This document shows, in pieces, positions 1 through 63,992 of a DNA stretch of 64,000 nt. How positions within the stretch are numbered: position 1 is the first letter of the stretch; each line of letters begins with the position of its first letter. The notes below the pieces were generated by a model that saw only the letters and a program-made list of their open reading frames with translations, was not told where the DNA came from and searched no databases. This DNA comes from Candidatus Uhrbacteria bacterium (GTDB taxonomy: Bacteria; Patescibacteriota; Patescibacteriia; JACRJV01), in assembly GCA_016215325.1 (NCBI GenBank), contig JACRJV010000007.1:3728-67727 (forward strand). The letters are read 5' to 3'. The position numbers and the translations under genes were made by a program.

Positions 1-164
1 TCGCCGTCCACGACGCGCTCGACCACCACCCGCTCTTGTTGGCCGGATGGATTGGCGGGGGGAGCGTCTTTAGGTTGGACAAGCAGAAGTAAGCCGCCAG
101 CGATCACGGCGCCGATCATTCCGCTTACAACCATCGGAAAGATTTTTTCGAACAACATCGGCAT
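1..164 (-). CDS. Partial ORF for a small membrane protein. It runs off the window edge.
   Basis: A minus-strand ATG at 164 reads MPMLFEKIFPMVVSGMIGAVIAGGLLLLVQPKDAPP... The sequence has one hydrophobic helix. The ORF continues past position 1. It starts 5 nt after the stop of the 815-aa gene. Confidence 0.3.
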   Translation of the reverse strand, partial: MPMLFEKIFPMVVSGMIGAVIAGGLLLLVQPKDAPPANPSGQQERVVVERVVDG

Positions 165-8600: not shown

Positions 8601-11600
8601 AACAATTTCAACTGCGGTGTTGGTATCTTCGTCCAGATCAAATGTTAATGTATTCGTGCCATCGGAAAAAGAAAGCTCGGTGTCTGTAGAATTGACGATT
8701 GTCTCGCCATTTCCCAGAGTGAGCGTACCGTCCAATCGTGTGGTCCCCGCATCCACCCACAAGGCATAGGCATTGGTGATGGTGGCAGGCCCAGCGCCCG
8801 CGCCCGTAGGCGCATTGGCAATATAGAGTGATGCCGCATTGGTTACCGTAAGAGTAGAGGCAGCGGAGAGTGTCGATTGAGCAATATTCAGAAGATTAAA
8901 CCCCGTGGCAGTCGTGATATTTGTAGAGCCAGTGATGGTGGCGGTTGCCGCAGAAAGATCGATGCCGTTCCAAGTGGCGCTGGCGCCTGAGGCAATAGTT
9001 TCGTTACCAGAAATCGCAGGATTTGTGATGGTGGCAGTATTGATCGCAGGACTAGTTAATGTTTTGTTTGTAAGAGTATCAGTAGTCGCTCGACCGACAT
9101 AGGTGTCCGTTCCTTGGAAGGTGATTGTTGTGGAATCCGTACCAGCGAGAGTCAAAGAGTTACTCGCCGTCAGCGTCTTACCATCGGCGATCGTGAGTGT
9201 GCCAGTGGATGCTGTTACTGTAAGTCCGTTGATTGTCTTATTCGTCAGCGCCTCTGCACCCGCAAGAGTGGCGAGCGTACCGGTCGTTGGAAGAGTAACG
9301 TTTGTTGCTCCGGTTGTTGTGAGTGTAAGAGAGTTCGCCCCAGAGGTAATGAGTGCTCCGGCAGTGGTGAGGTTCCCAGCCAAGTTAATCGTGCGAGCCG
9401 CATCGTTGGTGGTGATTGTCAGTATTCGGCCAGCTGTAAGATTCTCAGTGTTGGCAAGAGTGAGATCAAACGCGCCGGTGCCGGTGGAACGAATGCCTAA
9501 GGACGTGAGTGCGTCAGCAGTGCCGCCGTTGATATCTGGACTGGTCAGCGTTTTGTTCGTCAATGTATCGGTCGTGGCACGGCCAACTAGCGTATCAGTT
9601 CCGGTGGGAATCGTGATGGTGCCGCTATTAGAGATGGAGGCGATCACTGGGGTTGTGAGGGTTTTGTTGGTGAGCGTATCGGTTGTCGCGCGGCCGACAT
9701 ACGTGTCTGTTCCCTGAAATGTGATGGTTGTCGCATCTGTTCCTGCCAATGTGAGTGAATTGCTCGCGGTTAAGGTCTTCCCATCCGCGATCGTCAACGT
9801 GGCCGAAGTGGTCGGCGCGGTAATGGCGACCTTATTAATGGATGTTGCAGAAGCAACGCCTAAAGTCGGAGTAACGAGGGTCGGAGACGTCGAAAAGACG
9901 AGATTCGTGCTCGTGGTTCCTGTTGTTCCGCCCGCAGAGGAAAGATAGTTCAACTGTGTTCCCGTCGACGTAACCGATGTTGCTCCAAGTGTAAACGGTG
10001 TGGGAATGGTGACCGTGCCGGTGAAGGTGGGGCTTTCTAAAAATGCAAATGTTTTCCGTGCTGCGCCGGTCGTGATGGTGCCGTAATACGCATCGGTCAA
10101 GAATTCCACGGCCCCGGCTTCGGCAGTGGTCATCAGTGACCCAGAGTTAAACTTGAGCGGCGCTGTGGAAGCGCTGGTGGTGCCAGCTTTGAGGTGAAGG
10201 ACAGCAGTGGGGGTTGTGACCCCGATGCCGACATTTCCATCAAAACGCACAGCCCCATCATCCACCCATAACGCATAGGCATTGGTGATGGTGGCTGGCC
10301 CAGCGCCTCCGCCCGTGGGGGCATTGGCAATATATGCTGTTGCGGCATTCGTCACAGTTAATGCTGAAGCTGCCGAGAGTGTTGGTTGGGCAATATTCAA
10401 CAGATTAAACCCAGCGGCTGTCGTGATGTTGGTGGAGCCGGTGATGGTGGCTGTGGCCGCAGAAAGATCGATCCCGTTCCAGGTGGCACTCGCACCAGAG
10501 GCGATCGTTTCGTTGCCAGAGATCGCGGGGTTGGTAATGGTAGCGGTATTAATCGCAGGACTGGTCAATGTCTTGTTCGTGAGCGTATCCGTGGTGGCTC
10601 GACCGACAAGCGTATCTGTTCCGGTGGGGATCGTGATAGTACCGGAGTTGGAAATGGAAGCGATCACGGGAGTTGTGAGTGTTTTGTTGGTGAGCGTATC
10701 CGTCGTCGCCCGGCCAACATACGTGTCTGTTCCTTGAAAGGTGATTGTTGTCGCATCTGTTCCTGCCAATGTGAGTGAATTACTCGCAGTCAACGTTTTC
10801 CCATCGGCGATCGTGAGGGTGGCCGATGTTGCCGGCGCGGTAATCGCCACCTTGTTGATTGAGGTTGCGGATGCAACGCCTAGTACGGGGGTAACAAGCG
10901 TCGGGGTTGTGGCAAATACCAGCGCTCCAGAACCGGTTTCATCGGTGAGTTGTCCTGAAATGCCCGAAGATGCGGTAGTAGCGGTCACGGCACTCGTGCC
11001 ATTGCCGATTAAGATGCCTGAGAGCGTCCCCGCTCCAGTACCTCCTTGAGCAACCGCTAATGCAGTGGTTAATCCCGAAATCGACGTGATGTCCGAATTT
11101 GCTCCCGATGCGGCGGCGCCTAAATTTGCTCGCGCATTCGCGGCGGTTGTTGCGCCAGTGCCGCCGTTAGCCACTGCAATCGTCGTCCCATTCCAGGTCC
11201 CGGCCGTGATCGTCCCAACCGTCGCAATGTCGGTACCCACCAGTTTTGAAGCCGCAATCGAGCCCGTGAGCATGCCATTCGTGACCGATCCGGTATCACC
11301 AGTGGTGACAATAGTACCACTGACATTGGGAATGCTCAGCGTTCGGGTTGCCCCCGCGCTTACACCGGAGATTTGGAATGCGAGTTGCTTGGTTGTGTCG
11401 CTATCGTCTTGGATAACGAAGTTTGTATCTTTCAACGTCGCTGCGTTCGTATTATCAATCGTCTTGTTGGTGAATGTTTCACTACCGGCAAGGGTCGCAA
11501 TAGTGCCGGTGGTCGGCAAGGTGAGGGTCGTCGCCCCCGTTGTTGCGAGCGTTAGGGCATTCGCTCCGGATGTCGTGAATGCCCCCGCAAGCGTGAGATT

Positions 11601-12377
11601 GCCATCGAGATTAATCGTGGTGCCCGCTCCTTGAATTGTTTTGTCCGCGCCCGTCACCGTCAATGTCCGCGATGTGGTGCCCCCGGCAACAGTGAACCCG
11701 TCCGCGGCCGAGGCAAGTGTCAATCCATTGACGGCGCCGCTGGTCACAGTGCCGGTGCCAGAACTTCCCACCGTGAGCGTGCCGGCCACGGTTGCATCAC
11801 CTTCGGCATCCACTTTGAATCGGCTCGTGCCATTCACCGCAATGCCAAAGAGCGTGTAGTTGGCGGTGACGCTCGCGGGGTTTATGTAGACAACACCTTG
11901 ACTCACGCCCGTTCCCGACGGGGTGCCAGTCAACGTAAAATTTCCGGAAGAGCTGGTCACGGGGACAAATGCAGAAAGGCCGCCAATGGCCGATGTTTCT
12001 AATCCATCGAGCCGATCGGTGTTGACGGCGTACCCCGATGCCCCAATCCGGCGTCGTGGCGAGAGCGTTTCGCCATTGACTTGGACCTCGAGATACAATG
12101 TGTCGTTATCGAACAACGTCACCGGGAATGCGTTTTGTGATCCGCCACCGGCAGATGTATCACCTAAGAGCACGCTAAACTCGCCACTGGCCACAGCCAC
12201 ACTCATGGTCGACGACGGACTCGTGCACCCATTCGCTCCCGTGCCTTTCGCAGACCATTGGCAGGTGCCGGACGTTGCGGCGTCGTAAATCACAAATGCC
12301 ATGTTGTAGTTGGCATCGCTTACCGCCGAACCGCTGGAAGTCTTGAGGACCCCCTGGTAACTCATGACATGGGGCAC
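2691..12377 (-). CDS. Giant repeat-rich, tail-fibre-like surface protein, 3228 aa as called from a GTG start. The C-terminus carries an intramolecular-chaperone (peptidase S74-like) domain plus a Pro/Glu/Thr/Ala-rich tail.
   Basis: This is a single uninterrupted 9.7-kb ORF. It is extremely rich in Gly, Thr, Ser, Ala and Asn. Modules of the form ...TDTLTNKTLTTPVIASISNSGTITIPTGTDTLVGRATTDTLTNKTLTSP... are reiterated. Some copies are identical at the DNA level, for example around 9.1-9.7 kb versus 10.4-10.8 kb. Two ~250-aa paralogous blocks begin ANNNFALASGTGTFVQTFTGDTTDAAQITA... and ANANFALASGTGTFVQTYTGNTTDAAQITA... Near the N-terminus there is a motif NGGTGATTAANARANLGAA like those seen in phage tail fibres. 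The C-terminal region reads ...DDDGNIGIGTTDPQYKLHVMGDVAATSFVNISTKEAKKDIEYLTEGDQKTILAKLANVNIARYHYKEE..., which matches the architecture of the 'chaperone of endosialidase' / peptidase S74 domain. A coiled coil and a PAPEPTPAPEP low-complexity tail follow. No signal peptide appears after the called start (see the mini-ORF at 12408..12488). Confidence 0.85.
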   Translation of the reverse strand: MPHVMSYQGVLKTSSGSAVSDANYNMAFVIYDAATSGTCQWSAKGTGANGCTSPSSTMSVAVASGEFSVLLGDTSAGGGSQNAFPVTLFDNDTLYLEVQVNGETLSPRRRIGASGYAVNTDRLDGLETSAIGGLSAFVPVTSSSGNFTLTGTPSGTGVSQGVVYINPASVTANYTLFGIAVNGTSRFKVDAEGDATVAGTLTVGSSGTGTVTSGAVNGLTLASAADGFTVAGGTTSRTLTVTGADKTIQGAGTTINLDGNLTLAGAFTTSGANALTLATTGATTLTLPTTGTIATLAGSETFTNKTIDNTNAATLKDTNFVIQDDSDTTKQLAFQISGVSAGATRTLSIPNVSGTIVTTGDTGSVTNGMLTGSIAASKLVGTDIATVGTITAGTWNGTTIAVANGGTGATTAANARANLGAAASGANSDITSISGLTTALAVAQGGTGAGTLSGILIGNGTSAVTATTASSGISGQLTDETGSGALVFATTPTLVTPVLGVASATSINKVAITAPATSATLTIADGKTLTASNSLTLAGTDATTITFQGTDTYVGRATTDTLTNKTLTTPVIASISNSGTITIPTGTDTLVGRATTDTLTNKTLTSPAINTATITNPAISGNETIASGASATWNGIDLSAATATITGSTNITTAAGFNLLNIAQPTLSAASALTVTNAATAYIANAPTGGGAGPATITNAYALWVDDGAVRFDGNVGIGVTTPTAVLHLKAGTTSASTAPLKFNSGSLMTTAEAGAVEFLTDAYYGTITTGAARKTFAFLESPTFTGTVTIPTPFTLGATSVTSTGTQLNYLSSAGGTTGTTSTNLVFSTSPTLVTPTLGVASATSINKVAITAPTTSATLTIADGKTLTASNSLTLAGTDATTITFQGTDTYVGRATTDTLTNKTLTTPVIASISNSGTITIPTGTDTLVGRATTDTLTNKTLTSPDINGGTADALTSLGIRSTGTGAFDLTLANTENLTAGRILTITTNDAARTINLAGNLTTAGALITSGANSLTLTTTGATNVTLPTTGTLATLAGAEALTNKTINGLTVTASTGTLTIADGKTLTASNSLTLAGTDSTTITFQGTDTYVGRATTDTLTNKTLTSPAINTATITNPAISGNETIASGASATWNGIDLSAATATITGSTNITTATGFNLLNIAQSTLSAASTLTVTNAASLYIANAPTGAGAGPATITNAYALWVDAGTTRLDGTLTLGNGETIVNSTDTELSFSDGTNTLTFDLDEDTNTAVEIVTSSGDDLVLSPGSGYVGIGTTTPTTNLVIKDSGGDRSSSYNMLILDKTDIGNPATIEFKTGYPSDWRAGSSITIANAFEIYDVNTSSSRFSIGGSSGTITLTGPVSLTGATTVAANNNFALASGTGTFVQTFTGDTTDAAQITASSVTTADALQITASGLTTGNALNIISTSTVGTGSDDTALVTLTRSGTNANSAHTAYGIYSSVTNVNATSGTNIAGYFAASTASGLIVNYALVANGTEGDLVGGTGSGDDLLLVSTSNATKGDIQFHSSSYIINSSGQATFATDETLNGIDVSSGAVSDVTTLGMSGALTIAPTTTGTFTDYQLETEWTQGTLINADFANVTTQSGGDITGLKFDFDTNLTGAADLDITGTDIVMNALTAADSAVTTTYTGYNISAAGALSVTDGANAAIINWRGANITMPNITQNTGDTVTANGIRLVNGTITTAGTQNIINLAAAGVGAGTLYGINIGNITAGNGTETALSIGSGWDTGIDLSANILVNIGNAGTDFTSTGGLTLAGALDANGQVDLGDSGDTVAIDSSDWDINTTGDMSGIGAITADGAISTTSTLNVDSTVTLGGTTIDANANFALASGTGTFVQTYTGNTTDAAQITADSVSTADALQISADGLTTGTGVFIESTSTVGGGSGSTALLKLTRSGTNSNATHTAYGVYSTVANTGTTSSNYGGYFSASGATTNYALFADGTQGDLVGGSGSGDDLLLISTSNSTKGDIQFHSSSYYINSSGQLTVATDESINGIDINAGAVSDVTTLGMSGALTISPTTTGTFLDFALETEWTTGSLINADFGSATTQSGAITGMAMDLSSNLTLDNTSAITGLSLTIPGTPASGSGTKTLTGIDVTNQMSADVAGVTVNSRGVNISVGGGNAAYTDGTINADGLRVASVSSDGSAGDTINLINLVPAGPQGGTYNALNIGDITANAATETAVKIGSGWDTAIRVTGSTTTGVTSHVVNLASDIGSGAALIYGAPDFSGSGVTGYGLNITATDSTANTNTDYGYYGSLALTGNAAKYGYGLYQTVTSNSTTADTIAALDIATSVTGAISTGTRTVYGLRSQPATSGASSGGTANVYGSYLAPSSTASSTGSTVNVYGEYIANTATLTTNGTINSYGLYIADGTSTTTGTSTKTGLYVASPTGADTNYTAIFAGGYVGIGDTTPTAALDVVGSGVFTTGSTTSVLTGSIDPTASTDVTGVGTAFLTELVVGDSITVSGETRMVTQIGNNTNLSVNVAFSDNANDTSVDRTPVQGITLQNTTASTATNDAQYSPALTFHGSSWVNPGPGLASYSQDWRVFSANQEGGGSQLRFDYNQFGNGYNTPMSLAANGNLNLALVTATFGNDTGESGNSWTGSVFTVNNNQTSTAVSGANSIVGNYFKFTNQPSVSNNVEYAMLIENQPTTNTTDNFVSALLVLNNADTAVTGPASTVVTDALLIANTGGAGITNDIKFQNSETIDNASDGTVNIKDSGGTAILTGSLTAFQINLDDTTTYTQRVCQSGADAATGLVNIGDCNAGGSDMAEYYGSDGTLEAGDIVAISGEAQEFVQERIGQSSKASVAKSQAVYAPITGVVSTNPFSEVLGEGVFTTEEHPVPIVLAGRIPVKVNLEGGDIAAGDRITTSSIAGVGMKAKTSGWTVGVALESYNAQSPDNKIVVWFNPQYRIESSQMAFDDDGNIGIGTTDPQYKLHVMGDVAATSFVNISTKEAKKDIEYLTEGDQKTILAKLANVNIARYHYKEESATAPLRMGLIAEEAPLEVLSIDGKGVDIYKLATFTLSAVKAQQTQIEKLFERMEQFEQRLDRLTGETTRSSQEELSFLRAEIQGIREQSQQQVRQQSASAPAPIITLKEIEEDPPTTPVEKKIEEPPSQASEVEPAPEPAVVTETPALPEPPITETPTASSEPTPTPAPEPTPAPEPVAEAAPAQSEPAAVEQAAATESAPAPAQPETVAQE

Positions 12378-16051: not shown

Positions 16052-16504
16052 AAAGATACGATGATCAATGAACCATTGTCATTATATATTAGCATAACCT
16101 TTTCTAGAGTACAACTTTTTTACCGATTTACTAAACTTCGTATGGTGAAGAGTTGTCGATACAAAAAGCCGCCCTTGTGAGGCGGCTTTCGCTTGCCCCG
16201 CAGCGATTGCTCAGGGCGAAGTTGACTCAAGAAACGTGATAGCAATGACGTCACCCGATCATTTGATCGGGTCATTCGTTGGTGGAGTACTGCCGCCCTC
16301 AATGCGCGCTGAAAGAGTACAGCAGTATTCCACCAACAAATGTCGACTTGGACTTTCGTCCAAATTACTCCCTAGAAAGGAGGTGATCCATCCACAGCTT
16401 CCGCTACGGATGCCTTGTTACGACTTCGTCCCTGTCACCAATCCTACCTTCTGACGGTTGTCCGCCATTCGGGTATTATCGGCTCCCTTGACGTGACGGG
16501 CGGT

Positions 16505-17239
16505 ATTACGATCACAACAATCTTATGATTGTTGTGTCACTGATCACCACTGGGCAAACGGCTTTCCCGTACCCTAGCGGTTCCCAAATATCGTTATTGT
16601 TTTCTTCCCGTTCCTCCGCGCCATCTCGCGCAACGCCAGAATTTTTGAATATCCGGTGTCGCTCAGATGTTCTTTCTTCGCGATGATTTCCACCACGCGT
16701 CGAAAGATGTTGAAGGATTGCTGTTTTTTCGACTGAAGAGGGTGTTGTGCCTTCTCCGTCAACAAAACCCACAACATAGTGTGGCGGTAACGGTCGGAAA
16801 TGATAATTTGGTTTCACTCCTTCCCCAGAAAAACTTCTGAGTACTATGAGATCTGCTGACTTCTTGTACTTCATAAGAATGCTTGTTTCCAAACACTCCG
16901 CCATCACCTCGTGATTAATTCATCACGATGTAGTATACCACAATTTGATGATGGAAGGTACAAGATCTCCCTGGGTCACGAACAAGAATAATTGTCTCTA
17001 TCGGGATCCTAATCACATACAGCATTTTGTGTTCGAATAATTTCCCCCTGTACGCGCGGGGTCATCCAAACTGTATGCCACCATTGATTCACGCTAAAGA
17101 CTGCGTCCGAACTCTCGTCAGAGCCCTCGCGGGCACTGGCGTGTTCTTTGCTTCAAGTCTTTCGAACGAGACTTGGTCGGATTTCCTGCCTGCCGACAGG
17201 CAGGTCACCAACATTCGTTGTCCGCTACCAGGCGGTCCG
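16505..17239 (-). mobile_element. Intron/IVS inside the 16S rRNA gene, inserted between the GUACAC and ACCGCCCGUC segments near E. coli position ~1397
   Basis: The boundaries are unambiguous by alignment to the universal 16S sequence. The intron begins GGACCGCCUGG and ends ...CGUAAU, so it shows neither the group I terminal G nor the group II GUGYG. Its class cannot be determined by eye. Confidence 0.8.
16512..16907 (-). pseudogene. Degenerate LAGLIDADG homing-endonuclease ORF inside the 16S intron, probably frameshifted
   Basis: The 131-aa ORF contains ...HYVVGFVDGEG, a LAGLIDADG motif, but then turns low-complexity. An overlapping ORF in a second frame (16574..16777) carries the endonuclease-like continuation ...SFNIFRRVVEIIAKKEHLSDTGYSKILALRE... 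Confidence 0.5.
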
Positions 17240-17550
17240 TGTACAAAACCCGAGAACGTATTCACCGCGGCGAGGCTGATCCGCGATTACTAGCGATTCC
17301 TGCTTCATGAGGGCGAGTTGCAGCCCTCAATCTGAACTGGGGGGTGATTTGATGGGATTAGCTCCAGCTTGCGCTTTGGCGGCCCATTGTAGCACCCCAT
17401 TGTAGCACGTGTGTCGCCCAGGACGTAAGAGCCATGCTGATTTGACGTCATCCCCACCTTCCTCCCCCTTGAGGGGGGCAGTCTCGCCAGACACTTGTAA
17501 CTGGCAATAGGGGTTGCGCTCGTTTCCAGACTTAACTGTACACCTTACGG

Positions 17551-17583
<33 letters not shown>

Positions 17584-17695
17584 TGCACCCTCGAAGGTCA
17601 CACGTTTCCGTGCGCTTGCAGCATCATGTCAAGCCCTGGTAAGGTTCCTCGCTTATTGTCGAATTGAACCACATGCTCCACCGCTTGTGCGGGTT

Positions 17696-17744
<49 letters not shown>

Positions 17745-19037
17745 GATACTTAAGGGGTTACCTTTGATAAACGACACTGGGAGGGTCGATACTCCCAATG
17801 TCTAGTATCCATCGTTTACGGCGTGGATTACGCGGGTATCTAATCCGCTTCACTCCCCACGCTTTCGTCTCTCAGCGTCAGATCCGTCCTAGTATGCTGC
17901 TTTCGCCTTTGGTGTTCCTGCCGATATTAACGCATTTTACTACTACACCGACAGTTCCGCATACCTCTTCCGGCCTCAATCCTGACCATCTCTCCCGCAG
18001 CGCCGAAGTTAAGCTTCAGCATTTAACAGAAGATGCATCAGGACGCCTACAGACGCTTTACGCCCAATAAATCCGGATAACGCTTGAACCACTCGTATTA
18101 CCGCGGCTGCTGGCACGAGTTTAGCAGGTCCTTATTCCCACCATACCGTCAGAAATCGGGGATCGGATATCGGAAATCGAAACGGAGGAATCCGACTTCT
18201 GATCTCTGAACCCCGACCTCTTCTTCTGGTGGAAAAGCAGTTTACACTCCGAAGAGCTTCATCCTGCACGCGGCGTCGCTCCCTCAGACTTTCGTCCATT
18301 GGGGAAGATTCTTGACTGCAGCCTCCCGTAGGAGTCGGGCCAGTATTTCAGTGCCCGTGAGGCGGGTCGTGCTCTCACACCCGCTACCCGTCGTCGCCTT
18401 GGTGGGCTTTTACCCCGCCAACTAGCTGATAGGCCATAGGCCCCTCTCCGAGCGGATTGCTCCGTTACTCCAAAACTCTTGCGAGAATGGAGACCATTGG
18501 GAATTAGCGTCTCTTTCGAAACGTTATGCCCATCTCGAAGGTAGGTTACCAATGTGTTACTCACCCGTTTGCCACTCTGCGCGCTCCGCGCTGAAATATC
18601 GATATATCGAAATATCGAAATGTCAGTGCGAAGCACGCAGCGTTCGACTTGCATGCCTTAGACACGCCGCCAGCGTTCATCCTGAACCAGGATCAAATTC
18701 TCAAGAAGATTGAATGTTGATTGCTCAACGGTTCAATATACTGTTCCTAAGAACAGATTTGGTTGCTTAGTTATTTTGTTGAATTGACGTATTGCTATCA
18801 CGTTTCTTGTTTCAACCTTACATTGTTGTCTACCCAATTTTCAATGTACGATCCCTTGAGAGAGAAAAAAATACACCCGCCCATGTGCTTCCAGCGCATC
18901 CGTAAATCCACACATAGACTGGCTGTAGAATGTTTCCGTATTGTTGGCCGTTTGGGCCATCCCCAAGGGGCAACGGGTAGTATGACGGAAACAAAAGCCG
19001 GTGTCAAGAGCAAGTCTGAGATGCAAATACATCTCCG

Positions 19038-44035: not shown

Positions 44036-45349
44036 TTAAGAGGCTTCTTCTGGAGTTTCGGTCTTGGTGGCTTCTGCTTCTCCGGTTTTCGGGGTTGATG
44101 CTTCTTCAATATTCGTGGTATTCGCCCCTGCCTGATCGGTAGGCAGGTCGCTGTTGGCGGTGTTCATGTTCTCTTGCGAATTTTCGTTTTTACGGATATC
44201 CACATTCCAGCCGGTAAGTTTTGATGCGAGGCGGACGTTTTGGCCGTTGCGGCCGATGGCTAACGAAAGTTGATCCTCCGGCACCTGGACCGTCGCTGTC
44301 TTGGATTCTTCATGGAGTTGGATGTCCGCTACCTTTGCCGGTGACAATGCGGCCTGGAGATACGCAACAGGGTCTTCTTTCCATTCGATAATATCGATTT
44401 TCTCGCCCTTGAGCTCTGCAATGATTGCTTGTACACGCGCGCCGCGCTGCCCCACGCAAGAGCCCACCGGATCGATGTTGCTTTCCAACGATCGCACCGC
44501 GACCTTCACGCGCGACCCGGCCTCGCGGGCAATACCCATAATTTCGATATGCTGGTGTTGGATCTCGGGGATTTCAACGGTAAACAGGTACCGAACAAGT
44601 TCCGGAGAGGTCCGGCTCACAACCACCTCGGGCCCGCGCGCTTTGAGCTCCACCGATTCGACATACACTTTTACGCGGTCGCCGATATGGTATTGCTCGT
44701 GCGGTGCCTGCCCCTCGGGTACCATGATCCCAACGATGCGCCCGAAATCTACCAGCACTAAACGTCCCTCGCGTCGTTGGATCAACCCGGTGACAACAGT
44801 ATGTTCTTTGTCTTTAAAGTCTTGATAGAGGACGTTGCGTTCTGCTTCGCGCAACTTTTGCATAATCACCTGCTTGGCCGTTTGCGCAGCCATACGACCA
44901 AAGCTCGAAGGCACCTCAAGTTCAGTGCGGATTTCATCGCCGAGTTGGGCATCCGACTTGACCGCTTGCGCCTCTTCGAGCGTGAGGTTCAGACGCGGAT
45001 GGAACCGTGGCTTCTCTTCAATAAGTTCTGTCGTTGCATCAGAACCCCCTTCCAAAACCGTACCAGAAGGCGCGCTCATCACGCCGACATCGTTCGGGCT
45101 CGATTTACTTAATTCACTCTCTGCCATCTCTTCCTCCGGCGGCTTTTCCATAACGGTCTTTACATCGAACACGCGCATTTCACCAGTCTCGGGATGGAAC
45201 TCCACCTTAATGTTTTGATTCGGCTGACCGTAATCTTTACGGTACGCCGCGGCAAGGGCCGCTTCCAGCGTCTGCAGCACCACTTCTTTTGAAATCTTTT
45301 TTTCCTCGCAGACGGTATCAATCGCCTGCAGTAATGGATTGAGGGCCAT
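44036..45349 (-). CDS. nusA: Transcription termination/antitermination factor NusA. The ORF is open to 45403.
   Basis: An S1 domain and two KH domains are present (...DPVGSCVGQRGARVQAIIAELKGEKIDII... and ...AIGRNGQNVRLASKLTGWNVDI...). There is a ~40-aa acidic insertion near the N-terminus and an acidic C-terminal tail. Confidence 0.85.
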   Translation of the reverse strand: MALNPLLQAIDTVCEEKKISKEVVLQTLEAALAAAYRKDYGQPNQNIKVEFHPETGEMRVFDVKTVMEKPPEEEMAESELSKSSPNDVGVMSAPSGTVLEGGSDATTELIEEKPRFHPRLNLTLEEAQAVKSDAQLGDEIRTELEVPSSFGRMAAQTAKQVIMQKLREAERNVLYQDFKDKEHTVVTGLIQRREGRLVLVDFGRIVGIMVPEGQAPHEQYHIGDRVKVYVESVELKARGPEVVVSRTSPELVRYLFTVEIPEIQHQHIEIMGIAREAGSRVKVAVRSLESNIDPVGSCVGQRGARVQAIIAELKGEKIDIIEWKEDPVAYLQAALSPAKVADIQLHEESKTATVQVPEDQLSLAIGRNGQNVRLASKLTGWNVDIRKNENSQENMNTANSDLPTDQAGANTTNIEEASTPKTGEAEATKTETPEEAS

Positions 45350-50579: not shown

Positions 50580-51832
50580 TACTCTCTTATCTGCCCATTG
50601 CCAAGCACCACGTACTTTCGCACCGTGAGCGCCTCTACTCCCATAGGCCCACGGTCGTAGGTGCGGTCGGTGCTAATACCCACTTCCGCTCCCAAACCAA
50701 ATACACCGCCATCAACCAGCCGGGTCGAGGCATTCACAAGGACTGCCGCGCTATCCACCTCTCGCACAAACCGTTCGGCATGCTCCGCATTATTCGTGAC
50801 AATCGCATCCGAGTGATGGGTGGAATATTTGGCAATATGCGCAATCGCTTGATCAATACTATCCACGACTTTCACCGAGACGATGAGGTCGAGATATTCG
50901 GTAGACCAATCCTCTTCCGCCGCTGGGATTGTTCCGTGTGGAACAATCTTGCAAGTTTGTCCGCACCCGCGCACTTCCACATGTTTTTCGTCTAGTTGCT
51001 GGATCAACGGTGGAAGCAACCTCGGCGCTACCGATGCCGCAATCAAAAATGTTTCTGCCGAGTTGCATACGCTCGGATTCTGCGCTTTAGCATTCACCAA
51101 AATCTTGAGCGCCATGTCCAAATCCGCGCCATCATCCACATACACATGGCAAATCCCCTTGTTATGGGAGAGTACCGGCATCTTGGCAGCAGCGCGCACT
51201 GCTTCGATCAACGTAGTCCCGCCGCGCGGGATCATCAATTGCACGTGATCACGGTCTTCGCATAATACCTTCACCGCATCGTGATCAGTAATATCGATAA
51301 ACTGGAGATACACCAGCGGCACCTTGGTGGATTGGAGCGCCCCCTGGAGCACGGCAACAATCGCCTTATTGGTTTCGAGCGCTTCTTTCCCACCCCGGAG
51401 CACGCAGGCGTTCCCGCTTTTCAAAATCAACCCCGCAATTTCTACCACGACATTTGGCCGCGACTCAAAGATCGCGCCAATCACCCCAATCGGCACTCGC
51501 ATGCGTTGCAACTCAAACCCCAGTGGACGCTTCCCGAGCGACTCGATCGAACCTACTGGATCGGGAAGTGCAGCAATATCGCGAAGCGACTGGGCGATCG
51601 ATTTCACGTTGGCATCGTTTAATGCCAACCGCCTGCGCAGCGCAGCGGTGGCATCGGGATGCATCGCCAGGTCCTTTTGGTTCGCTTGGAGAATCGACGC
51701 ACAACCAGCATCCAGCGCATCGGCCATTGCCATCAACGTCTTATTTTTTACGTCCGTCGACAAGGCGGCCATCACCGGGAGGGTGGCTTGAGCGGCGGCT
51801 GTTTTCTCGAGAATATATTGACGGAGATCCAT
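50579..51832 (-). CDS. proA: Gamma-glutamyl phosphate reductase. The ORF is open to 51901.
   Basis: The sequence ...IPRGGTTLIEAV...VNASTRLVDGGVFGLGAEVGIST... matches the enzyme. Confidence 0.85.
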   Translation of the reverse strand: MDLRQYILEKTAAAQATLPVMAALSTDVKNKTLMAMADALDAGCASILQANQKDLAMHPDATAALRRRLALNDANVKSIAQSLRDIAALPDPVGSIESLGKRPLGFELQRMRVPIGVIGAIFESRPNVVVEIAGLILKSGNACVLRGGKEALETNKAIVAVLQGALQSTKVPLVYLQFIDITDHDAVKVLCEDRDHVQLMIPRGGTTLIEAVRAAAKMPVLSHNKGICHVYVDDGADLDMALKILVNAKAQNPSVCNSAETFLIAASVAPRLLPPLIQQLDEKHVEVRGCGQTCKIVPHGTIPAAEEDWSTEYLDLIVSVKVVDSIDQAIAHIAKYSTHHSDAIVTNNAEHAERFVREVDSAAVLVNASTRLVDGGVFGLGAEVGISTDRTYDRGPMGVEALTVRKYVVLGNGQIRE

Positions 51833-57858: not shown

Positions 57859-60825
57859 CTACGAGCACCCGCTGGTGCTGCCGCATTCCATGCACTTGTA
57901 GCACGCGCCGTTTCTCACCATCATACTGCCGCATTCTGCGCAGAGCTCTGCGTCGCGCTGGTTCTGGAAGGTGAATATGAGCCCATTGCCGACCTTGACC
58001 GGCGCTTGCGTGGGTTGAGCGGTGGACGCCACCGGCGCAACCTCGGCCGAGGCGCTCACCATTGGCATAGGCGCGGCGGCAGACGGGTTCACTTCGCTGG
58101 GGGTTGGCAGCGTCTGCTGTTCATTTTTCTGCGCAATCATCGCATGCACATGCGCGGCCTCTTCGGGGCTTAAAAATTTTACCGCAAGCCACCGGAAGAT
58201 GTAATCCATGATCGATTTAACCATGGGGATTTGCTTATTGCCAGTAAACCCACTTGGCTCAAACCGCATGTACGTGAATTTGTCTACCAACACTTGGAGC
58301 GGTACGCCATATTGCAGGTTCAAACTCACGCTCGTTGCAAACGCATCCATGATTCCCGAAATCGTTGATCCTTCTTTGCTCATCGTAATGAAGAGTTCCC
58401 CCGGCCGGCCGTCTTCGTAGAGCCCGACCGTGATGTACCCTTCATGCCCACTGATCGTGAACTTGTGTGTGAGCGCTTGGCGTTCATCCGGGAGTTTCTT
58501 GCGCTGCGGTTGGAACACCACCCATTGCTCTGCTTGTTTTGCGCCCTCTTTTTTACTGCCATCTTCTTTGCCGGTATTTAAGGGCTGCGTCCGCTTGCTA
58601 CCATCGCGGTAGATCGCGAGTGCCTTAAGGCCCGCTTTCCAGCCTTGGATATAAGCATCCATGATCTCTTCAATGGTGGAATGCTCTGGCATGTTCACGG
58701 TCTTAGAAATTGCGCCGCTAATAAACGGCTGGGCAGCCGCCATCATGCGGATGTGCCCCAGGTGGTGAATGCTGCGGCTCCCATTCTTGGGCTTAAAGGC
58801 GCAATCAAAGACGGACAAATGTTCGGGCTTAAGCTCTGGCGCACCTTCAATCGTATCGTTATGATCGATGAATTCAATAATCGATCGGACTTGTTCTGGC
58901 GTGTAGCCAAGGTGCTTGAGCGCGTTGGGGACCGTACGGTTGACAATCTTCATGTATCCGCCGCCCACGAGTTTTTTGTATTTGACCAGCGCAATATCCG
59001 GCTCAATGCCGGTGGTATCGCAATCCATCATAAACGCGATCGTCCCAGTAGGCGCAATCACCGTGACTTGCCCGTTGCGCGAACCCCACCGCTCGGTAAA
59101 GTCAATCACATCATCCCACGCGCGCACGCTCTCGCGGCTCAAGTCTGATGGAATCAACGCATGATTGATCGCGTCTACTGCCTTGCGGTGCTGTCGCATG
59201 ACGCGCATGTATGGTTCTTTATTCGCGGCGTATCCTTCAAATGTTCCCACATGTTTGGCCATCAATGCGGATTGACGGTTGGCAATGCCGGTCATGATCG
59301 CGGTCAGTGCCCCGCACCACGCGCGGCCCTCATCAGAATCATACGCAACTCCGCGTTCCATGAGCAACGCCCCGAGATTGGCGTACCCTAACCCCAATGG
59401 CCGGAATTTGTAGGAATTTTCCGCGATCTTTGGCGTGGGGTAGCTGGCATTGTCAACAATAATCTCTTGAGCGGTAATGAGAATCTCAATCGCATGCTTA
59501 TAGAGCTCGGCGTCGAATGATCCGTCTCCGCGTTTGAACTTGAGCAAATTAATCGACGCAAGGTTGCAGGCGCTGTCATTCAGGTACATGTATTCCGAGC
59601 AAGGATTGGATGCATGGATTCGGTCGGTGTTAATGCTCGTGTGCCAATTGTTGATCGTGGTGTCATATTGCATGCCGGGATCCCCGCAAATATAGGTGGA
59701 CTCGGCGATTTTCCATAACACTTCGCGCGCTTGGAATGTTTCCATCGCTGCCCCGCCCTTCACGGCTTTGGTCGACCATGTGCCATTTTGCTCCACGGCA
59801 TTCATAAACTCGTCTGTGACGCGCACGCTATGATTGGCGTTCTGGAAGAACACAGAAGTATACGCCTCGCCGTCGATGGCTCCGTTATATCCCGAATCAA
59901 TCAGTGACCATGCCTTCTTTTCTTCTTTGGATTTTGACTGAATAAAGTCCATGATGTCCGGGTGCCCGACATCCAAGATCACCATCTTTGCCGCGCGCCG
60001 TGTTTTGCCTCCGGATTTGATAACGCCGGCAAACGCATCAAATCCTTTCATAAAACTCACCGGCCCCGATGCCGTCCCGCCGCCGCTTAACTTTTCTTTG
60101 CTCGATCGAATCGTTGAAAAATTTGTTCCGGTCCCAGATCCGAATTTAAACAACATCCCTTCCGTCTTGGCCAAACTCAAAATCGAATCCATGGTGTCAT
60201 CCACCGAGTTGATAAAGCAGGCAGAACACTGTGGGCGGGAATAGTCGTCTTCCGACATCTTTACCATCTGCTCTTGTTGGCTCCAATAATATCGCCCGGC
60301 GCCGGAGCCTGTATCATAACGATGCACGCCGCAGTTAAACCATACCGGCGAGTTGAAGCTCGCGTATTGGTTGATAAGGATCGAAGTTAATTCTGCATAA
60401 AACGTTTCCCCATCGTCATCGCTGGCAAAGTAGCGCGATCGCTTGCCCCAATCGGTAATCGTTCGACTCACGCGGTCAATAAGTTGTTTTGCCGATGTTT
60501 CCCGTTTGTTTTTCTCCAAATCCCCATAAAAATATTTACTGGCCACAATGTTAGTGGCATTCTGGCTCCAAAACGAGGGGACTTCCACATCATGCTGTTC
60601 AAAAATCGTTTTTCCGCTCATGTCGGTGATCGAAGCGGTACGCTTCTCCCAGGCAATAGAATCAAACGGGTGTTGGCCCAGACGAGTCAATACACGCTGG
60701 AATTGGAGCCCTGCAGGCAGCGATTCCGACACAAGCACTGCTTGCAAATCGTTAAACTCGGACGATGGTTTTGCGGCCATTGCCTCCTTTTGTTTGAGGC
60801 CAACGGAAGGGGAAGAAGGGGTCAT
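57859..60825 (-). CDS. nrdJ: Adenosylcobalamin-dependent (class II) ribonucleotide reductase
   Basis: This 988-aa protein carries ...NPCSEYMYLNDSACNLASINL... and a C-terminal zinc-ribbon CAECGSMMVRNGACYKCMECGSTSGCS. Confidence 0.9.
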   Translation of the reverse strand: MTPSSPSVGLKQKEAMAAKPSSEFNDLQAVLVSESLPAGLQFQRVLTRLGQHPFDSIAWEKRTASITDMSGKTIFEQHDVEVPSFWSQNATNIVASKYFYGDLEKNKRETSAKQLIDRVSRTITDWGKRSRYFASDDDGETFYAELTSILINQYASFNSPVWFNCGVHRYDTGSGAGRYYWSQQEQMVKMSEDDYSRPQCSACFINSVDDTMDSILSLAKTEGMLFKFGSGTGTNFSTIRSSKEKLSGGGTASGPVSFMKGFDAFAGVIKSGGKTRRAAKMVILDVGHPDIMDFIQSKSKEEKKAWSLIDSGYNGAIDGEAYTSVFFQNANHSVRVTDEFMNAVEQNGTWSTKAVKGGAAMETFQAREVLWKIAESTYICGDPGMQYDTTINNWHTSINTDRIHASNPCSEYMYLNDSACNLASINLLKFKRGDGSFDAELYKHAIEILITAQEIIVDNASYPTPKIAENSYKFRPLGLGYANLGALLMERGVAYDSDEGRAWCGALTAIMTGIANRQSALMAKHVGTFEGYAANKEPYMRVMRQHRKAVDAINHALIPSDLSRESVRAWDDVIDFTERWGSRNGQVTVIAPTGTIAFMMDCDTTGIEPDIALVKYKKLVGGGYMKIVNRTVPNALKHLGYTPEQVRSIIEFIDHNDTIEGAPELKPEHLSVFDCAFKPKNGSRSIHHLGHIRMMAAAQPFISGAISKTVNMPEHSTIEEIMDAYIQGWKAGLKALAIYRDGSKRTQPLNTGKEDGSKKEGAKQAEQWVVFQPQRKKLPDERQALTHKFTISGHEGYITVGLYEDGRPGELFITMSKEGSTISGIMDAFATSVSLNLQYGVPLQVLVDKFTYMRFEPSGFTGNKQIPMVKSIMDYIFRWLAVKFLSPEEAAHVHAMIAQKNEQQTLPTPSEVNPSAAAPMPMVSASAEVAPVASTAQPTQAPVKVGNGLIFTFQNQRDAELCAECGSMMVRNGACYKCMECGSTSGCS

Positions 60826-60895: not shown

Positions 60896-61399
60896 CTAAC
60901 GAGCAGCCACTTTCTGTTTTTTCCCTATATTAAGCTCTAATAATGCCTTTTGGAACGCTCCTAAGTCCTGGAATGACTGGTAGACAGAAGCAAATCTCAG
61001 ATACGCAACCGCATCAAAGCGTTTGAGCGCTTTCATGACAATTTCCCCGATAATTCTCGATTCTATTTCGCGCCGTGGGGGGGCGTCCTCTCGGGAAACG
61101 ACTTTCGCTTTCACCGCAATATCGCGCTCGATGCGATGAATGAGACCGTTTACTTTTGCTGGCGTAGTTGGAAGTTTTTCGAGCGACCGCAGGATCCCGC
61201 CTTCCAATTTTTCTCGAGAATATTCTTCTTCGTGCCCATCGCGCTTCTTCACAATAATGTCCAGGAGTTCCATTTCTTCGTAGGTGCTAAAACGGAACAT
61301 GCATCGCCGGCAATTTCGTCGCCGACGAATTGCCCGCCCGTCGTGGATTTCACGAGAGTCTAGCACGCGGGTATCAGCAGCAGCGCAGACAGGACACTT
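60896..61399 (-). CDS. nrdR: Transcriptional repressor NrdR. The ORF is open to 61459.
   Basis: The sequence begins MKCPVCAAADTRVLDSR...CRRCMFRF (a zinc ribbon) and is followed by an ATP-cone. Confidence 0.9.
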   Translation of the reverse strand, partial: KCPVCAAADTRVLDSREIHDGRAIRRRRNCRRCMFRFSTYEEMELLDIIVKKRDGHEEEYSREKLEGGILRSLEKLPTTPAKVNGLIHRIERDIAVKAKVVSREDAPPRREIESRIIGEIVMKALKRFDAVAYLRFASVYQSFQDLGAFQKALLELNIGKKQKVAAR

Positions 61400-61526
61400 C
61401 ATACGGTATGAGTACGAATCGATCCGAATCACGCCCAAATAAATCCTAATGACATTCACGCGAGATTTGGTTCTATTCGATGTTCAGATTCGGATCAGTT
61501 TGTACTACTCTCACTTATGCACACTA

Positions 61527-62120: not shown

Positions 62121-62319
62121 TAAAACACCGCTTTCCGAGCTTTGAATTACGGAACTCCATTTTTGCCATCCTCGGGTCACTCCGCCCGCGGGCGGTGGCC
62201 AATCAGAGCCTGCCCCGCACATGATACGGGGTCGGGAATGACAAATGGTGGGTTTCGTAAATCACCGATGCGTTTGCAATATTTATTGGGATTTCTTCAT
62301 TTCTTCTGTTCAAAAACCG

Positions 62320-62352
62320 CCCCGATGCACATCGGGGCGGTTTTACAATCTT
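62320..62352. terminator. Intrinsic terminator immediately 3' of tRNA-Ala(GGC)
   Basis: The hairpin reads AAAAACCGCCCCGATG-CAC-ATCGGGGCGGTTTTAC. Confidence 0.8.
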
Positions 62353-62354
62353 TT

Positions 62355-62430
62355 TGGTGGACCCTACCGGGATCGAACCGGTTACCTCTTCCATGCCATG
62401 GAAGCGCTCTACCAAATGAGCTAAGGGCCC
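62355..62430 (-). tRNA. tRNA-Ala (anticodon GGC), with CCA encoded
   Basis: The sequence is GGGCCCT-TA-GCTC-ATTTGGT-AGAGC-G-CTTCC-ATGGCAT-GGAAG-AGGTA-ACCGG-TTCGATC-CCGGT-AGGGTCC-A-CCA. The G3:U70 Ala identity pair is present. Confidence 0.85.
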
Positions 62431-62450: not shown

Positions 62451-62474
62451 AAATTGTTCCACGTGGAACAATTT
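62451..62474. repeat. Copy 1 of the 22-bp perfect palindrome AATTGTTCCACGTGGAACAATT
   Basis: It lies 21 nt upstream of the tRNA-Ala(GGC) 5' end and 17 nt downstream of the stop of the 82-aa gene. Confidence 0.8.
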
Positions 62475-62490
62475 GACGAGTTGTATGCTC

Positions 62491-62739
62491 TTATTTGATC
62501 AATTTTTGGACTGCTTGTTGCCATTTTTTGAACGCCTCTGTAGTCGCTGCACTCGCCGCCGTGATCCGCTGCTCGTATTCATTAAATGCAGCCCTGTGGG
62601 CTTCTGTAGTATCACATTGTTCAAACCGATCTTCAAACTCCTTCAAAATAGCTCGCTCCTTATCTGACACACCAAGGTAATCATCCCAGAGTTGCCTTAT
62701 TTCGTCTTCTGGTGTGGGCATCTTGGGTTCAAAATCCAT
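62491..62739 (-). CDS. Small acidic helical protein (82 aa), hypothetical
   Basis: The sequence is MDFEPKMPTPEDEIRQLWDDYLGVSDKERAILKEFEDRFEQ... It is flanked by palindrome copies 1 and 2. Confidence 0.45.
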   Translation of the reverse strand: MDFEPKMPTPEDEIRQLWDDYLGVSDKERAILKEFEDRFEQCDTTEAHRAAFNEYEQRITAASAATTEAFKKWQQAVQKLIK

Positions 62740-62756
62740 AGACTATGAATTTCTAC

Positions 62757-62804
62757 AAATTGTTCCACATGCCTGCCTGCCTGCCGGTAGGCAGGGAACA
62801 ATTT
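62757..62804. repeat. Copy 2 of the palindrome, with a 27-bp nested hairpin inserted at its centre
   Basis: AAATTGTTCCAC-ATGCCTGCCTGCCTGCCGGTAGGCAGG-GAACAATTT. It lies 18 nt upstream of the 82-aa gene's ATG. Confidence 0.75.
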
Positions 62805-62974
62805 GCTGCGGGGTAGAAACAATTCCAAGATCATTTCGACTTCTTAAACATTTTTCTATGATTACTCACTATTCCCTACCCATCCCTCTAAGTGTTCTTG
62901 CCCAAAAGTCAACAAATCCGCTAACCGACAATGGGGGATATAGGTGGATAAGCTGTGGACTAACAATGGATAAC

Positions 62975-63058
62975 CTTCCTACCTTCGCCATTGGACCTAG
63001 GCAGAATCTCCGCCAGAGGCGGATCAGCCCTTGGCTGAGAACCCTCTGATCAAGGCCT
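62975..63058 (-). other. tRNA-Ala 3'-end fragment. The 18-bp direct repeat TTGGACCTAGGCAGAATC is shared with the intact gene.
   Basis: It contains the tRNA-Ala(CGC) T-arm/acceptor 3' sequence but has no matching 5' half. Confidence 0.4.
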
Positions 63059-63129
63059 TGGACCTAGGCAGAATCGAACTGCCGCCTCCGCAATGCGAAT
63101 GCGGCGTACTACCACTGTACTATAGGCCC
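63059..63129 (-). tRNA. tRNA-Ala (anticodon CGC)
   Basis: The sequence is GGGCCTA-TA-GTAC-AGTGGTA-GTAC-G-CCGCA-TTCGCAT-TGCGG-AGGC-GGCAG-TTCGATT-CTGCC-TAGGTCC-A. G3:U70 is present. CCA is not encoded. Confidence 0.8.
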
Positions 63130-63142
63130 AAGGCCTTGACCT

Positions 63143-63192
63143 GAATAATGCTCAATGCGAATGCGATGTTCTACCACTGGACCATAGGCCCG
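63143..63192 (-). pseudogene. Degenerate 5' half of a tRNA-Ala copy
   Basis: GGGCCTATGGTCCAGTGGTAGAACATCGCATTCGCATTGAGC matches the first ~42 nt of the neighbouring tRNA-Ala. After that it diverges and no T-arm is present. Confidence 0.45.
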
Positions 63193-63218
63193 AAGGCCAA
63201 AGCTGGCAGGCGCGCTTT

Positions 63219-63243
63219 AAATTGTTCCACGTGGAACAATTTT
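63219..63243. repeat. Copy 3 of the 22-bp palindrome
   Basis: AAATTGTTCCACGTGGAACAATTT is followed by a T-run. Confidence 0.8.
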
Positions 63244-63324: not shown

Positions 63325-63396
63325 TGCCCTCACCAGGAGTTGAACCCAGATTTGTCCCTTAGGACGGGACCGTTCTATCCATTGAACTATGAGGGC
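63325..63396 (-). tRNA. tRNA-Arg (anticodon CCT)
   Basis: The sequence is GCCCTCA-TA-GTTC-AATGGATA-GAAC-G-GTCCC-GTCCTAA-GGGAC-AAAT-CTGGG-TTCAACT-CCTGG-TGAGGGC-A. The T-stem has two G-U pairs. Confidence 0.75.
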
Positions 63397-63548: not shown

Positions 63549-63992
63549 ATGGCCATTTTCCAGAAGAACGGGACGCCAATACCAGTCGGTTCAACGGATA
63601 GTATCGAGACGATCATTGCCCCAGGAGTACGCGTGGAGGGGGAGGTGGGGTCTCGGGGTAATATTACCGTTGAGGGCGAAGTATACGGGAGCATCAAAAC
63701 AGATCAACACTTGCGGATCGGCTCCGGAGCAAAAATTTTTGCCAATGTAAAAGCGCAGTCCGCATTTGTGAGCGGAACGATCTCGGGCAACCTCAAGATT
63801 AAGGACCGCTTAGAACTCACGCAAAGCGCCACCATTGTCGGGGACGTTGAAACCAAAACAATTATTATTGCGGAAGGCGGCATGGTCCATGGAAAAGTAG
63901 AGATGTTGAGCGATGCAAAGGCGAAGGAGTTGCGCTCTCCATCAAAATCAGAAATGAAAAGCTCAAAAGAGGATGAGGAAGAAACGGCTTAA
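63549..63992 (+). CDS. Bactofilin. The ORF is open from 63462.
   Basis: There is a beta-helical DUF583-like core (...ETIIAPGVRVEGEVGSRGNITVEGEVYGSIKTDQHLRIGSGAKIFANVKAQSAFVSGTISGNLKIKDRLEL...) and a charged C-terminal tail. Confidence 0.7.
   Translation: MAIFQKNGTPIPVGSTDSIETIIAPGVRVEGEVGSRGNITVEGEVYGSIKTDQHLRIGSGAKIFANVKAQSAFVSGTISGNLKIKDRLELTQSATIVGDVETKTIIIAEGGMVHGKVEMLSDAKAKELRSPSKSEMKSSKEDEEETA

Follow-up and report, generated by a model that had tools for sequence, protein, structure and literature searches.

The mechanism by which ParB (Spo0J) and SMC are loaded at the origin-proximal parS sites of Bacillus subtilis is well established. The general parS consensus is TGTTNCACGTGAAACA (PMC7022226), the 22 sites of the Myxococcus xanthus array near the origin have the core TGTTCCACGTGGAACG (PMC7022226, Table 1), and parS2 and parS3 of Pseudomonas aeruginosa read TGTTCCACGTGGAACA (PMC4368675, Table 1); in P. 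aeruginosa and Pseudomonas putida, the sites (parS1-4 near oriC) are clustered within a few kb of oriC and are accompanied by extra degenerate copies and half-sites (PMC4368675, PMC7022226). In this study, a stretch of 64,000 nt from a Candidatus Uhrbacteria chromosome (Patescibacteria, candidate phyla radiation, CPR) was analysed; the whole stretch is called the window below, and the other genome loci compared with it are designated by L and a number. Judging from their sequence and surroundings, the palindromes found in one intergenic patch of the window are very probably chromosomal parS sites, the cis-acting centromere of a ParABS system, clustered close to the replication origin.

The 16-bp core of the window palindromes, TGTTCCACGTGGAACA, is identical to P. 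aeruginosa parS2 and parS3 and also equals the parS of P. putida. A single base separates it from the general consensus of the site family to which the B. subtilis sites belong (PMC7022226), and only the last base from the core of the multi-copy M. xanthus array. Unlike the Pseudomonas sites, the palindrome of the window is 24 bp long with conserved AAAT/ATTT flanks, its copies are intergenic beside tRNA genes, one of them is split by an insertion, and the host is a CPR bacterium in which ParB was not seen. While the B. subtilis sites lie mostly inside genes and are spread over the ori domain, those of the window form a tight intergenic cluster of ~0.8 kb. Dense arrays comparable to that of M. 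xanthus occur in the CPR loci L031, L037 and L084, whereas the window has only two intact copies.

A first-pass annotation of this DNA had reported three copies of a perfect 22-bp palindrome. The 22-mer, AATTGTTCCACGTGGAACAATT, has two exact matches in the window (62452-62473 and 63220-63241) and none in 100 dinucleotide-preserving shuffles of it; the perfect palindrome, however, extends to 24 bp (AAATTGTTCCACGTGGAACAATTT), and the middle copy, parS-2, is interrupted. When the whole window was searched for the core with up to three mismatches, for which 0.2 matches are expected by chance, only one extra site was obtained, the degenerate TGTTCCGTGTGGAACA. The intact and interrupted sites are thus confined to one ~800-bp patch of the 64-kb window (Table 1), and the two intact copies and the interrupted one are real and far beyond chance. 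parS-1 lies 17 nt past the stop codon of an 82-aa open reading frame (ORF) and 21 nt upstream of the 5' end of tRNA-Ala(GGC), and parS-3 lies 24 nt from a truncated tRNA-Ala copy and 89 nt from the 5' end of tRNA-Ala(CGC). These surroundings agree with the first-pass annotation: the distance of parS-1 from tRNA-Ala(GGC) was the same when recomputed, the 82-aa protein is acidic with its ATG 18 nt from parS-2, parS-3 is near a tRNA cluster with tRNA-Ala(CGC), and tRNA-Ala fragments are present in the patch.

Both intact copies carry the 16-bp inverted repeat that defines parS, TGTTNCACGTGAAACA or its variant TGTTCCACGTGGAACA. Every paper that was retrieved by a literature text search with the core 16-mer concerns parS or ParB. 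A scan of one genome per bacterial species (596 Gb) yielded at least 120 genome stretches with the 18-mer TTGTTCCACGTGGAACAA, while ca. 9 would be expected by chance according to our own estimate for a self-complementary 18-mer; the matches listed came from Bacteroidota, Acidobacteriota, Verrucomicrobiota, Pseudomonadota, Bacillota, Nitrospirota, Planctomycetota and CPR lineages. Of the 120 listed 8-kb blocks, 18 contain an ORF that bears the ParB signature (GERRxRA) and 23 a ParA-type Walker ORF, and a hidden Markov model (HMM) built from the GERRxRA ORFs recovered those ORFs and nothing else. Symmetric AAA...TTT flanks as in the window were seen at 13 of 137 sites of unrelated genomes; in the lineage of the window, the A/T-rich symmetric flanks AAAT...ATTT are kept and extend the site to 24 bp. 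Noc, for its part, binds sites with the core ATTTCCCGGGAAAT. The window core TTCCACGTGGAA has the parS-type central CACGTG and does not match that of a Noc-binding site.

Relatives of the locus were collected via NrdR and bactofilin (L122, L123, L124, L125/L126, L202 and L203). Their DNA identity to the window is as low as 69-80% in the adjacent ribonucleotide reductase and nrdR genes, and yet every relative spanning the patch between nrdR and the bactofilin gene has letter-perfect copies of the palindrome, from one to five each: three in L122, five in L123, one in L125/L126, one in the truncated contig of L202, two intact and three interrupted copies in L124, and four intact and one interrupted copy in L203. 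The flanks outside the 24 bp could not be aligned among the relatives, and the positions of the copies shift. In L122, one copy lies 4 nt from the 5' end of tRNA-Ala(GGC) and another on the opposite, downstream side of the same tRNA, and the copies in L123 flank unrelated ORFs. Letter-perfect copies amid diverged flanks at shifting positions (18 perfect cores in 7 related loci) indicate that selection acts on the site itself, independently of its flanks, and that copies turn over. Multiple exchangeable copies in one region are the signature of a site that is recognised in trans, not of the operator of one promoter.

In L123, L202, L206 and L210, the gene order is nrdR (-), parS/tRNA patch, bactofilin (+), DAGK-like (+), yidC/yidD/rnpA (-), dnaA (+) and dnaN (+), with the start of dnaA 3.4-3.6 kb past that of the bactofilin gene, and clusters of DnaA boxes occur in the rnpA-dnaA and dnaA-dnaN spacers of the relatives. 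This synteny places the three sites of the window, all within 0.8 kb, ca. 4-5 kb from the predicted dnaA/oriC, the expected place of parS; for the patch as a whole, the distance to dnaA/dnaN is ca. 4-6 kb. From ~12 to 64 kb of the window, the plus-strand GC skew is negative and the genes are on the minus strand; the orientation switches at the patch.

The patch itself holds a pair or cluster of DnaA-box-like motifs (GTGGATAAG / TTATCCACA) that is kept in all five relatives. Perfect or near-perfect DnaA boxes were found at the same place of the patch in L124 (cTGTGGATAAg), L122 (aTGTGGATAAg) and L123 (aGTGGATAAg), and L203 has TTATCCACA and GGTGGATAAG there. This cluster, additional to those flanking dnaA, may serve as an accessory site of DnaA binding or belong to oriC. 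The contigs L202 and L206-L213 end 180-320 nt upstream of the bactofilin gene, i.e. inside the parS/tRNA patch; apparently, short reads could not be assembled across the repeats of parS and tRNA sequence around the origin. In two other genomes, perfect parS sites were observed 0.2-1.3 kb from tRNA-Ala(GGC): at 705 and 1508 in L011 (Kerfeldbacteria; tRNA region 47-236) and at 795 and 1919 in the CPR-like L062 (tRNA region 1673-1748). This suggests a conserved linkage of the tRNA with parS and the origin in CPR.

The way in which the sites would work is taken from the established ParABS model (reviewed in PMC7022226), and we infer ParB binding and all steps after it from that model. A ParB dimer would read the core TGTTCCACGTGGAACA via two helix-turn-helix (HTH) domains, one GTTCCAC half-site per monomer, and would then bind CTP, close into a clamp and slide or spread onto the flanking DNA. 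The partition complex would load SMC, and its movement by ParA would separate the newly replicated origins. The two intact sites, which are within 770 bp, would give one partition complex over the tRNA/small-gene patch. In some species, ParB bound to parS can reduce the transcription of neighbouring genes (PMC7022226), and a secondary, operator-like dampening of the tRNA and small-gene promoters would be possible.

Several observations weigh against the identification as parS. A motif scan, Pfam and the home-built ParB HMM revealed no ParB, ParA or SMC gene in the 64-kb window or in the CPR loci examined, and a cognate ParB for the window sites is assumed; the literature searched for ParB of CPR, Patescibacteria or Parcubacteria yielded no useful report. 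The window ends short of dnaA (motif and Pfam searches detected no DnaA gene in it), so that its likely proximity to the origin is deduced from the synteny of the relatives. In addition, all three sites are situated just upstream of minus-strand genes, at distances of 18-89 nt. Such a placement resembles that of an operator, and the first-pass annotation had proposed that the palindrome is bound by a dimeric transcription factor; a KorB-like regulator of the ParB family acting on tRNA-Ala(GGC), the 82-aa gene and the tRNA-Ala(CGC) cluster would be a variant of this idea, and ParB complexes are reported to silence genes beside parS1-4 in P. aeruginosa (PMC7022226). However, the sequence is that of the universal parS and not lineage-specific, and neither its position relative to genes and promoters nor its copy number (1-5) is conserved in the relatives, the five copies of L123 being elsewhere. 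The L122 copy next to the mature tRNA 5' end leaves no room for a promoter, a second one is downstream of that tRNA, and at none of the copies did a promoter scan detect sigma-70-like hexamers on the minus strand. An operator is therefore improbable: the CACGTG dyad does mark the site of a dimeric HTH protein, as had been proposed, but a transcription-factor operator tied to promoters does not fit the universal core and the shifting positions.

The patch is rearranged among the relatives, their assemblies often break here, and the 3' and 5' fragments of tRNA-Ala are typical of integrase activity; moreover, parS and half-parS units form amplified-looking nested palindromes in other CPR genomes. 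All this would be in keeping with a recombination site or a mobile palindromic repeat (att/dif-like, or of the REP or miniature inverted-repeat transposable element type) that assembled an accessory patch with tRNA fragments; a recombination site had been the second proposal of the first-pass annotation. The junctions of the tRNA fragments, however, are within the T-loop and separated from the palindromes by at least 24 nt, the palindrome is not dispersed across the 64 kb, an ORF and Pfam search of the patch found no integrase or transposase, and the identity to parS is explained without mobility. We consider this role very unlikely, and the proposal that the palindrome organised the patch is not supported. 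There is also hardly any chance that the palindromes act as RNA hairpins, either as bidirectional terminators or as processing signals between the small gene and the tRNAs. Their single strands do fold (-7.8 to -9.8 kcal/mol, z ca. -5), the first copy follows the ORF stop so closely, and the third is followed by TTTTT on the plus strand; but the stem bases are A/T-rich, U-tracts are short or absent, and the terminator scan, which did call a GC-rich hairpin following tRNA-Ala(GGC), did not call the palindromes. Exact identity to parS across phyla would also be left without an explanation.

Taking the palindromes as parS, the middle copy deserves closer description. Its insert is 24 nt long, CCTGCCTGCCTGCCGGTAGGCAGG, and consists of CCTG and the 20-mer CCTGCCTGCCGGTAGGCAGG. 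When uninterrupted and interrupted copies of the relatives are compared with it, the insertion is seen to follow position 10 or 11 of the 16-bp core (TGTTCCACGT(G)^), a point 2-3 bp away from the dyad; the first-pass annotation had placed it precisely at the dyad. The interrupted copies of L124 consist of TGTTCCACGTG, the 20-mer CCTGCCTGCCGGTAGGCAGG and GAACA, three times, in both orientations and with unrelated flanks; relative to them, the window copy has the extra CCTG and a G-to-A change in CACGTG. The nested element of parS-2 is best described as a hairpin with a stem of 8-9 bp, (CCTG)2-3CC/GG(T/C)AGGCAGG.

In L122, the closest relative, the local order is tRNA-Ala(GGC), parS, small acidic gene, parS, DnaA-box-like motifs and tRNA-Ala 3' end. 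The site at the orthologous position (213-236) precedes the homologous small gene by 14 nt and reads AAATTGTTCCACGTGGAACAATTT without interruption, which shows that parS-2 of the window is a derived, interrupted parS. As a duplex, its halves are 24 bp apart; as single-stranded DNA, the region has a nested hairpin as its predicted fold (-17.5 kcal/mol, z = -5.4), in which the CACGTG core is not rebuilt. Only the left heptamer GTTCCAC is kept as a half-parS, and the right half retains no more than GGAACA. P. aeruginosa ParB binds half-parS heptamers (GTTCCAC or GTTTCAC) without spreading (PMC10419367; 10.1101/280743; PMC7022226), and the left half of parS-2 retains the former of these. As far as can be read from the sequence, parS-2 most likely no longer nucleates ParB and is non-functional, or at best a half-parS. 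The window copy and the three copies of L124 may go back to one insertion that template switching or gene conversion spread among neighbouring parS sites.

In four sites of two Uhrbacteria genomes (in L124 at 532-551, 834-853 and 1040-1059), the 20-mer follows core position 10 or 11 and thus occupies one and the same point of parS. Other inserts were also found in parS: L031 (Moraniibacteria) has a different 20-nt insert at core position 10, L203 has a 41-nt insert with two hairpins that would fit the same point, although its exact place within the interval from the dyad to position 11 is ambiguous, and L084 has a 42-nt hairpin exactly at the dyad together with nested half-full-half parS palindromes. 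In two of these genomes, dense parS/half-parS arrays are contained in an open ORF resembling O-antigen ligase (Wzy_C): L084 6675-7865 (-) of Patescibacteria RA.bin89 (396 aa) and L031 6189-7973 (-) of Moraniibacteria UBA11098 (594 aa). The arrays include nested half-spacer-full-spacer-half palindromes, with whole parS-centred palindromes inside split parS sites.

Copies of the 20-mer, whose general form is CCTGCCTRCCGGYAGGCAGG, were also found outside parS. The window has a second copy, a loop variant, at 17185-17204 inside an insertion of the 16S rRNA gene and a 21-nt relative at 44127-44147, in frame within nusA. Further CPR loci have exact or nearly exact copies, at L031 4510, L132 10013 and L138 5776 and, in the T-loops of tRNA-Pro-like 3' fragments, at L180 18141 and L191 18013. 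A scan of a viral-contig collection gave 48 stretches with 57 copies (L215-L262), mostly the perfect palindrome CCTGCCTGCCGGCAGGCAGG, in contigs of 33-70% GC. In L246, the 20-mer is in the variable loop of a tRNA-Met gene, which at 92 nt is still accepted by ARAGORN, and it is at the same place in L217; other tRNA-gene sites are the D-loop (L257) and next to the T-loop (L232).

Over 63 distinct copies, the edges of the 20-mer are sharp, target duplication is absent in 59, and no common flank or flanking tetranucleotide was found. GTTC precedes GC hairpins 3.2-fold above expectation in Uhrbacteria-like loci (rank 4 of 256). Insertion after GTTC, as in the parS half-site and the tRNA T-loop, was considered as a rule, and it is weakly supported, with no flank preference over all 20-mer copies. 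Targeting of hairpin tips was rejected: a stem of at least 5 was present in 13 of 63 copies as compared to 10% of the controls, the excess came from the parS cases, and outside parS the flanks are barely more palindromic than random junctions. Pfam revealed no transposase for the 20-mer in the window, a full-text search gave no literature match to its sequence, and Rfam has no family for it or for the palindromes. The 20-mer was not established in any isolate genome: GenBank phages gave no full match, and plasmids only putative ones. A sequencing or assembly artefact is unlikely because the same insertion is seen at matching places in independent projects (window/L124, L217/L246, L233/L250 and L216/L255).

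Small dispersed palindromic elements are known as REP/BIME with RAYT, Rickettsia palindromic elements and the IS200/IS605-derived PATEs. The 20-nt insert resembles them in being a short, GC-rich, multi-copy palindrome with no target-site duplication that intergenic DNA and the loops of RNA genes tolerate. Unlike them, it is far shorter, has razor-sharp edges and overall no conserved flanking tetranucleotide, is identical in contigs of 33-70% GC, and no associated transposase was seen. The 20-nt element may be a tiny mobile palindrome, or it may have arisen by repair or template switching. The further idea that CCTGCCTGCC/GGCAGGCAGG is an undescribed, ultra-small mobile or actively propagated element and that the parS sites of CPR are recurrent victims of near-centre insertions is speculative, and we give it a low chance. 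If true, bacterial centromeres would be eroded and remodelled by a new kind of genome parasite or by a new type of repair scar.

The coordinates of the features are listed in Table 1.

Table 1 Features of the parS patch and its surroundings (window coordinates unless a relative is named)
Feature	Position	Strand	Remarks
parS-1	62451..62474 (core 62455-62470)	.	Intact 24-bp palindrome AAATTGTTCCACGTGGAACAATTT, exact match
parS-2, interrupted	62757..62804	.	AAATTGTTCCACaTG 62757-62771, insert 62772-62795, GAACAATTT 62796-62804
Inserted mini-palindrome 'HP'	62772..62795	.	CCTG + CCTGCCTGCCGGTAGGCAGG; 20-mer at the same point in three L124 parS sites
parS-3	63219..63242 (core 63223-63238)	.	Intact 24-bp palindrome, exact match
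Candidate weak/degenerate parS TGTTCCGTGTGGAACA	50930..50945	.	2 mismatches, arms intact, inside proA-like gene
82-aa acidic ORF	62491..62739	-	pI 4.7; flanked by parS-1 and parS-2
tRNA-Ala(GGC)	62355..62430	-	
Terminator-like GC-rich hairpin following tRNA-Ala(GGC)	62313-62344		Terminator scan
tRNA-Ala 3' fragment and hairpins	62991..63042	-	62991-63008 identical to 63058-63075
tRNA-Ala(CGC)	63058..63130	-	Intact
Truncated 5' part of second tRNA-Ala(CGC) paralogue	~63148..63192	-	Intact in L124 (605-678)
tRNA-Arg(CCT)	63325..63396	-	
DnaA-box-like cluster GGTGGATAAG, CTGTGGACTAA, ATGGATAAC	62943..62974	.	Candidate boxes read from the sequence
DnaA-box-like motifs, patch of L203	~9030-9060		
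DnaA-box-like motifs, patch of L124	~690-735		
DnaA-box-like motifs, patch of L122	~60-100		
DnaA-box-like motifs, patch of L123	~8700-8740		
Class II ribonucleotide reductase gene	57859-60825	-	
nrdR	60896..61402	-	Left border of patch
Bactofilin gene	63549..63992	+	Right border of patch; orientation switch here

The 82-aa ORF evolves fast: no Pfam family was assigned to it, and its only homologue, a weak one, is in L122 (33% identity). Within its T-loop, behind GTTC as read on the tRNA strand, the tRNA-Ala 3' fragment is joined to a double hairpin of 30 nt, TCCGCCAGAGGCGGA TCAGCCCTTGGCTGA, and GAAC follows. This double hairpin (TCAGCC..GGCTGA TCCGCC..GGCGGA) is kept in L123 (7129-7170), L124 (392-500) and L202 (near 11024, a minus-strand scan index and not a plus-strand coordinate), and L124 holds the complementary half, a tRNA 5' part with the same hairpins. 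The patch looks like a recombination-prone tRNA integration site. Between a 108-aa ORF and tRNA-Ala(GGC), the intergenic block 62128-62264 has 92% identity over 74 nt to L124 1513-1640, while the genes near it are only ~70-74% identical to L124; it has two GC-rich hairpins and no Rfam family, and is a candidate small RNA.

The bactofilin of the window has 100% identity to an NCBI protein of 'Candidatus Uhrbacteria bacterium'. Among the CPR hallmarks of the window are DUF5667/DUF5671 proteins and a 16S rRNA gene (16378-18708, -) that is interrupted by an insertion of ~745 nt near the universal TTGTACAC/ACCGCCCGTC region, E. coli position ~1396. The insertion holds a group-II-D1D4-1 Rfam match (16817-16900), and tRNA-Ile(GAT) and an HTH_23 ORF are found downstream. 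A single ORF of 3228 aa spans 9.7 kb at 2691-12377 (-), where the GC skew is locally reversed. In L123, the motif ccagagttCGGCGGCCCAGCGGCCGCCGcctcctac occurs twice (6852-6871 and 17249-17268) with compensatory changes in the stem (GGCGGCC/GGCCGCC versus GGCCACC/GGTGGCC); one copy is upstream of the bactofilin gene, and a structured leader with a Shine-Dalgarno-like GGAGG on the opposite strand is possible.

The parS cluster itself is ordinary and of a thoroughly known kind; only the interrupted copy and the 20-nt palindrome are unusual. Found in parS, tRNA loops and an rRNA insertion across 33-70% GC, the 20-nt palindrome has more potential and merits a separate survey. The cluster can help to annotate oriC and the centromere of CPR genomes and apparently accounts for the assembly breaks at this place, and its intact and interrupted parS sites, standing side by side, are a natural experiment on what the ParB of a minimal genome needs.

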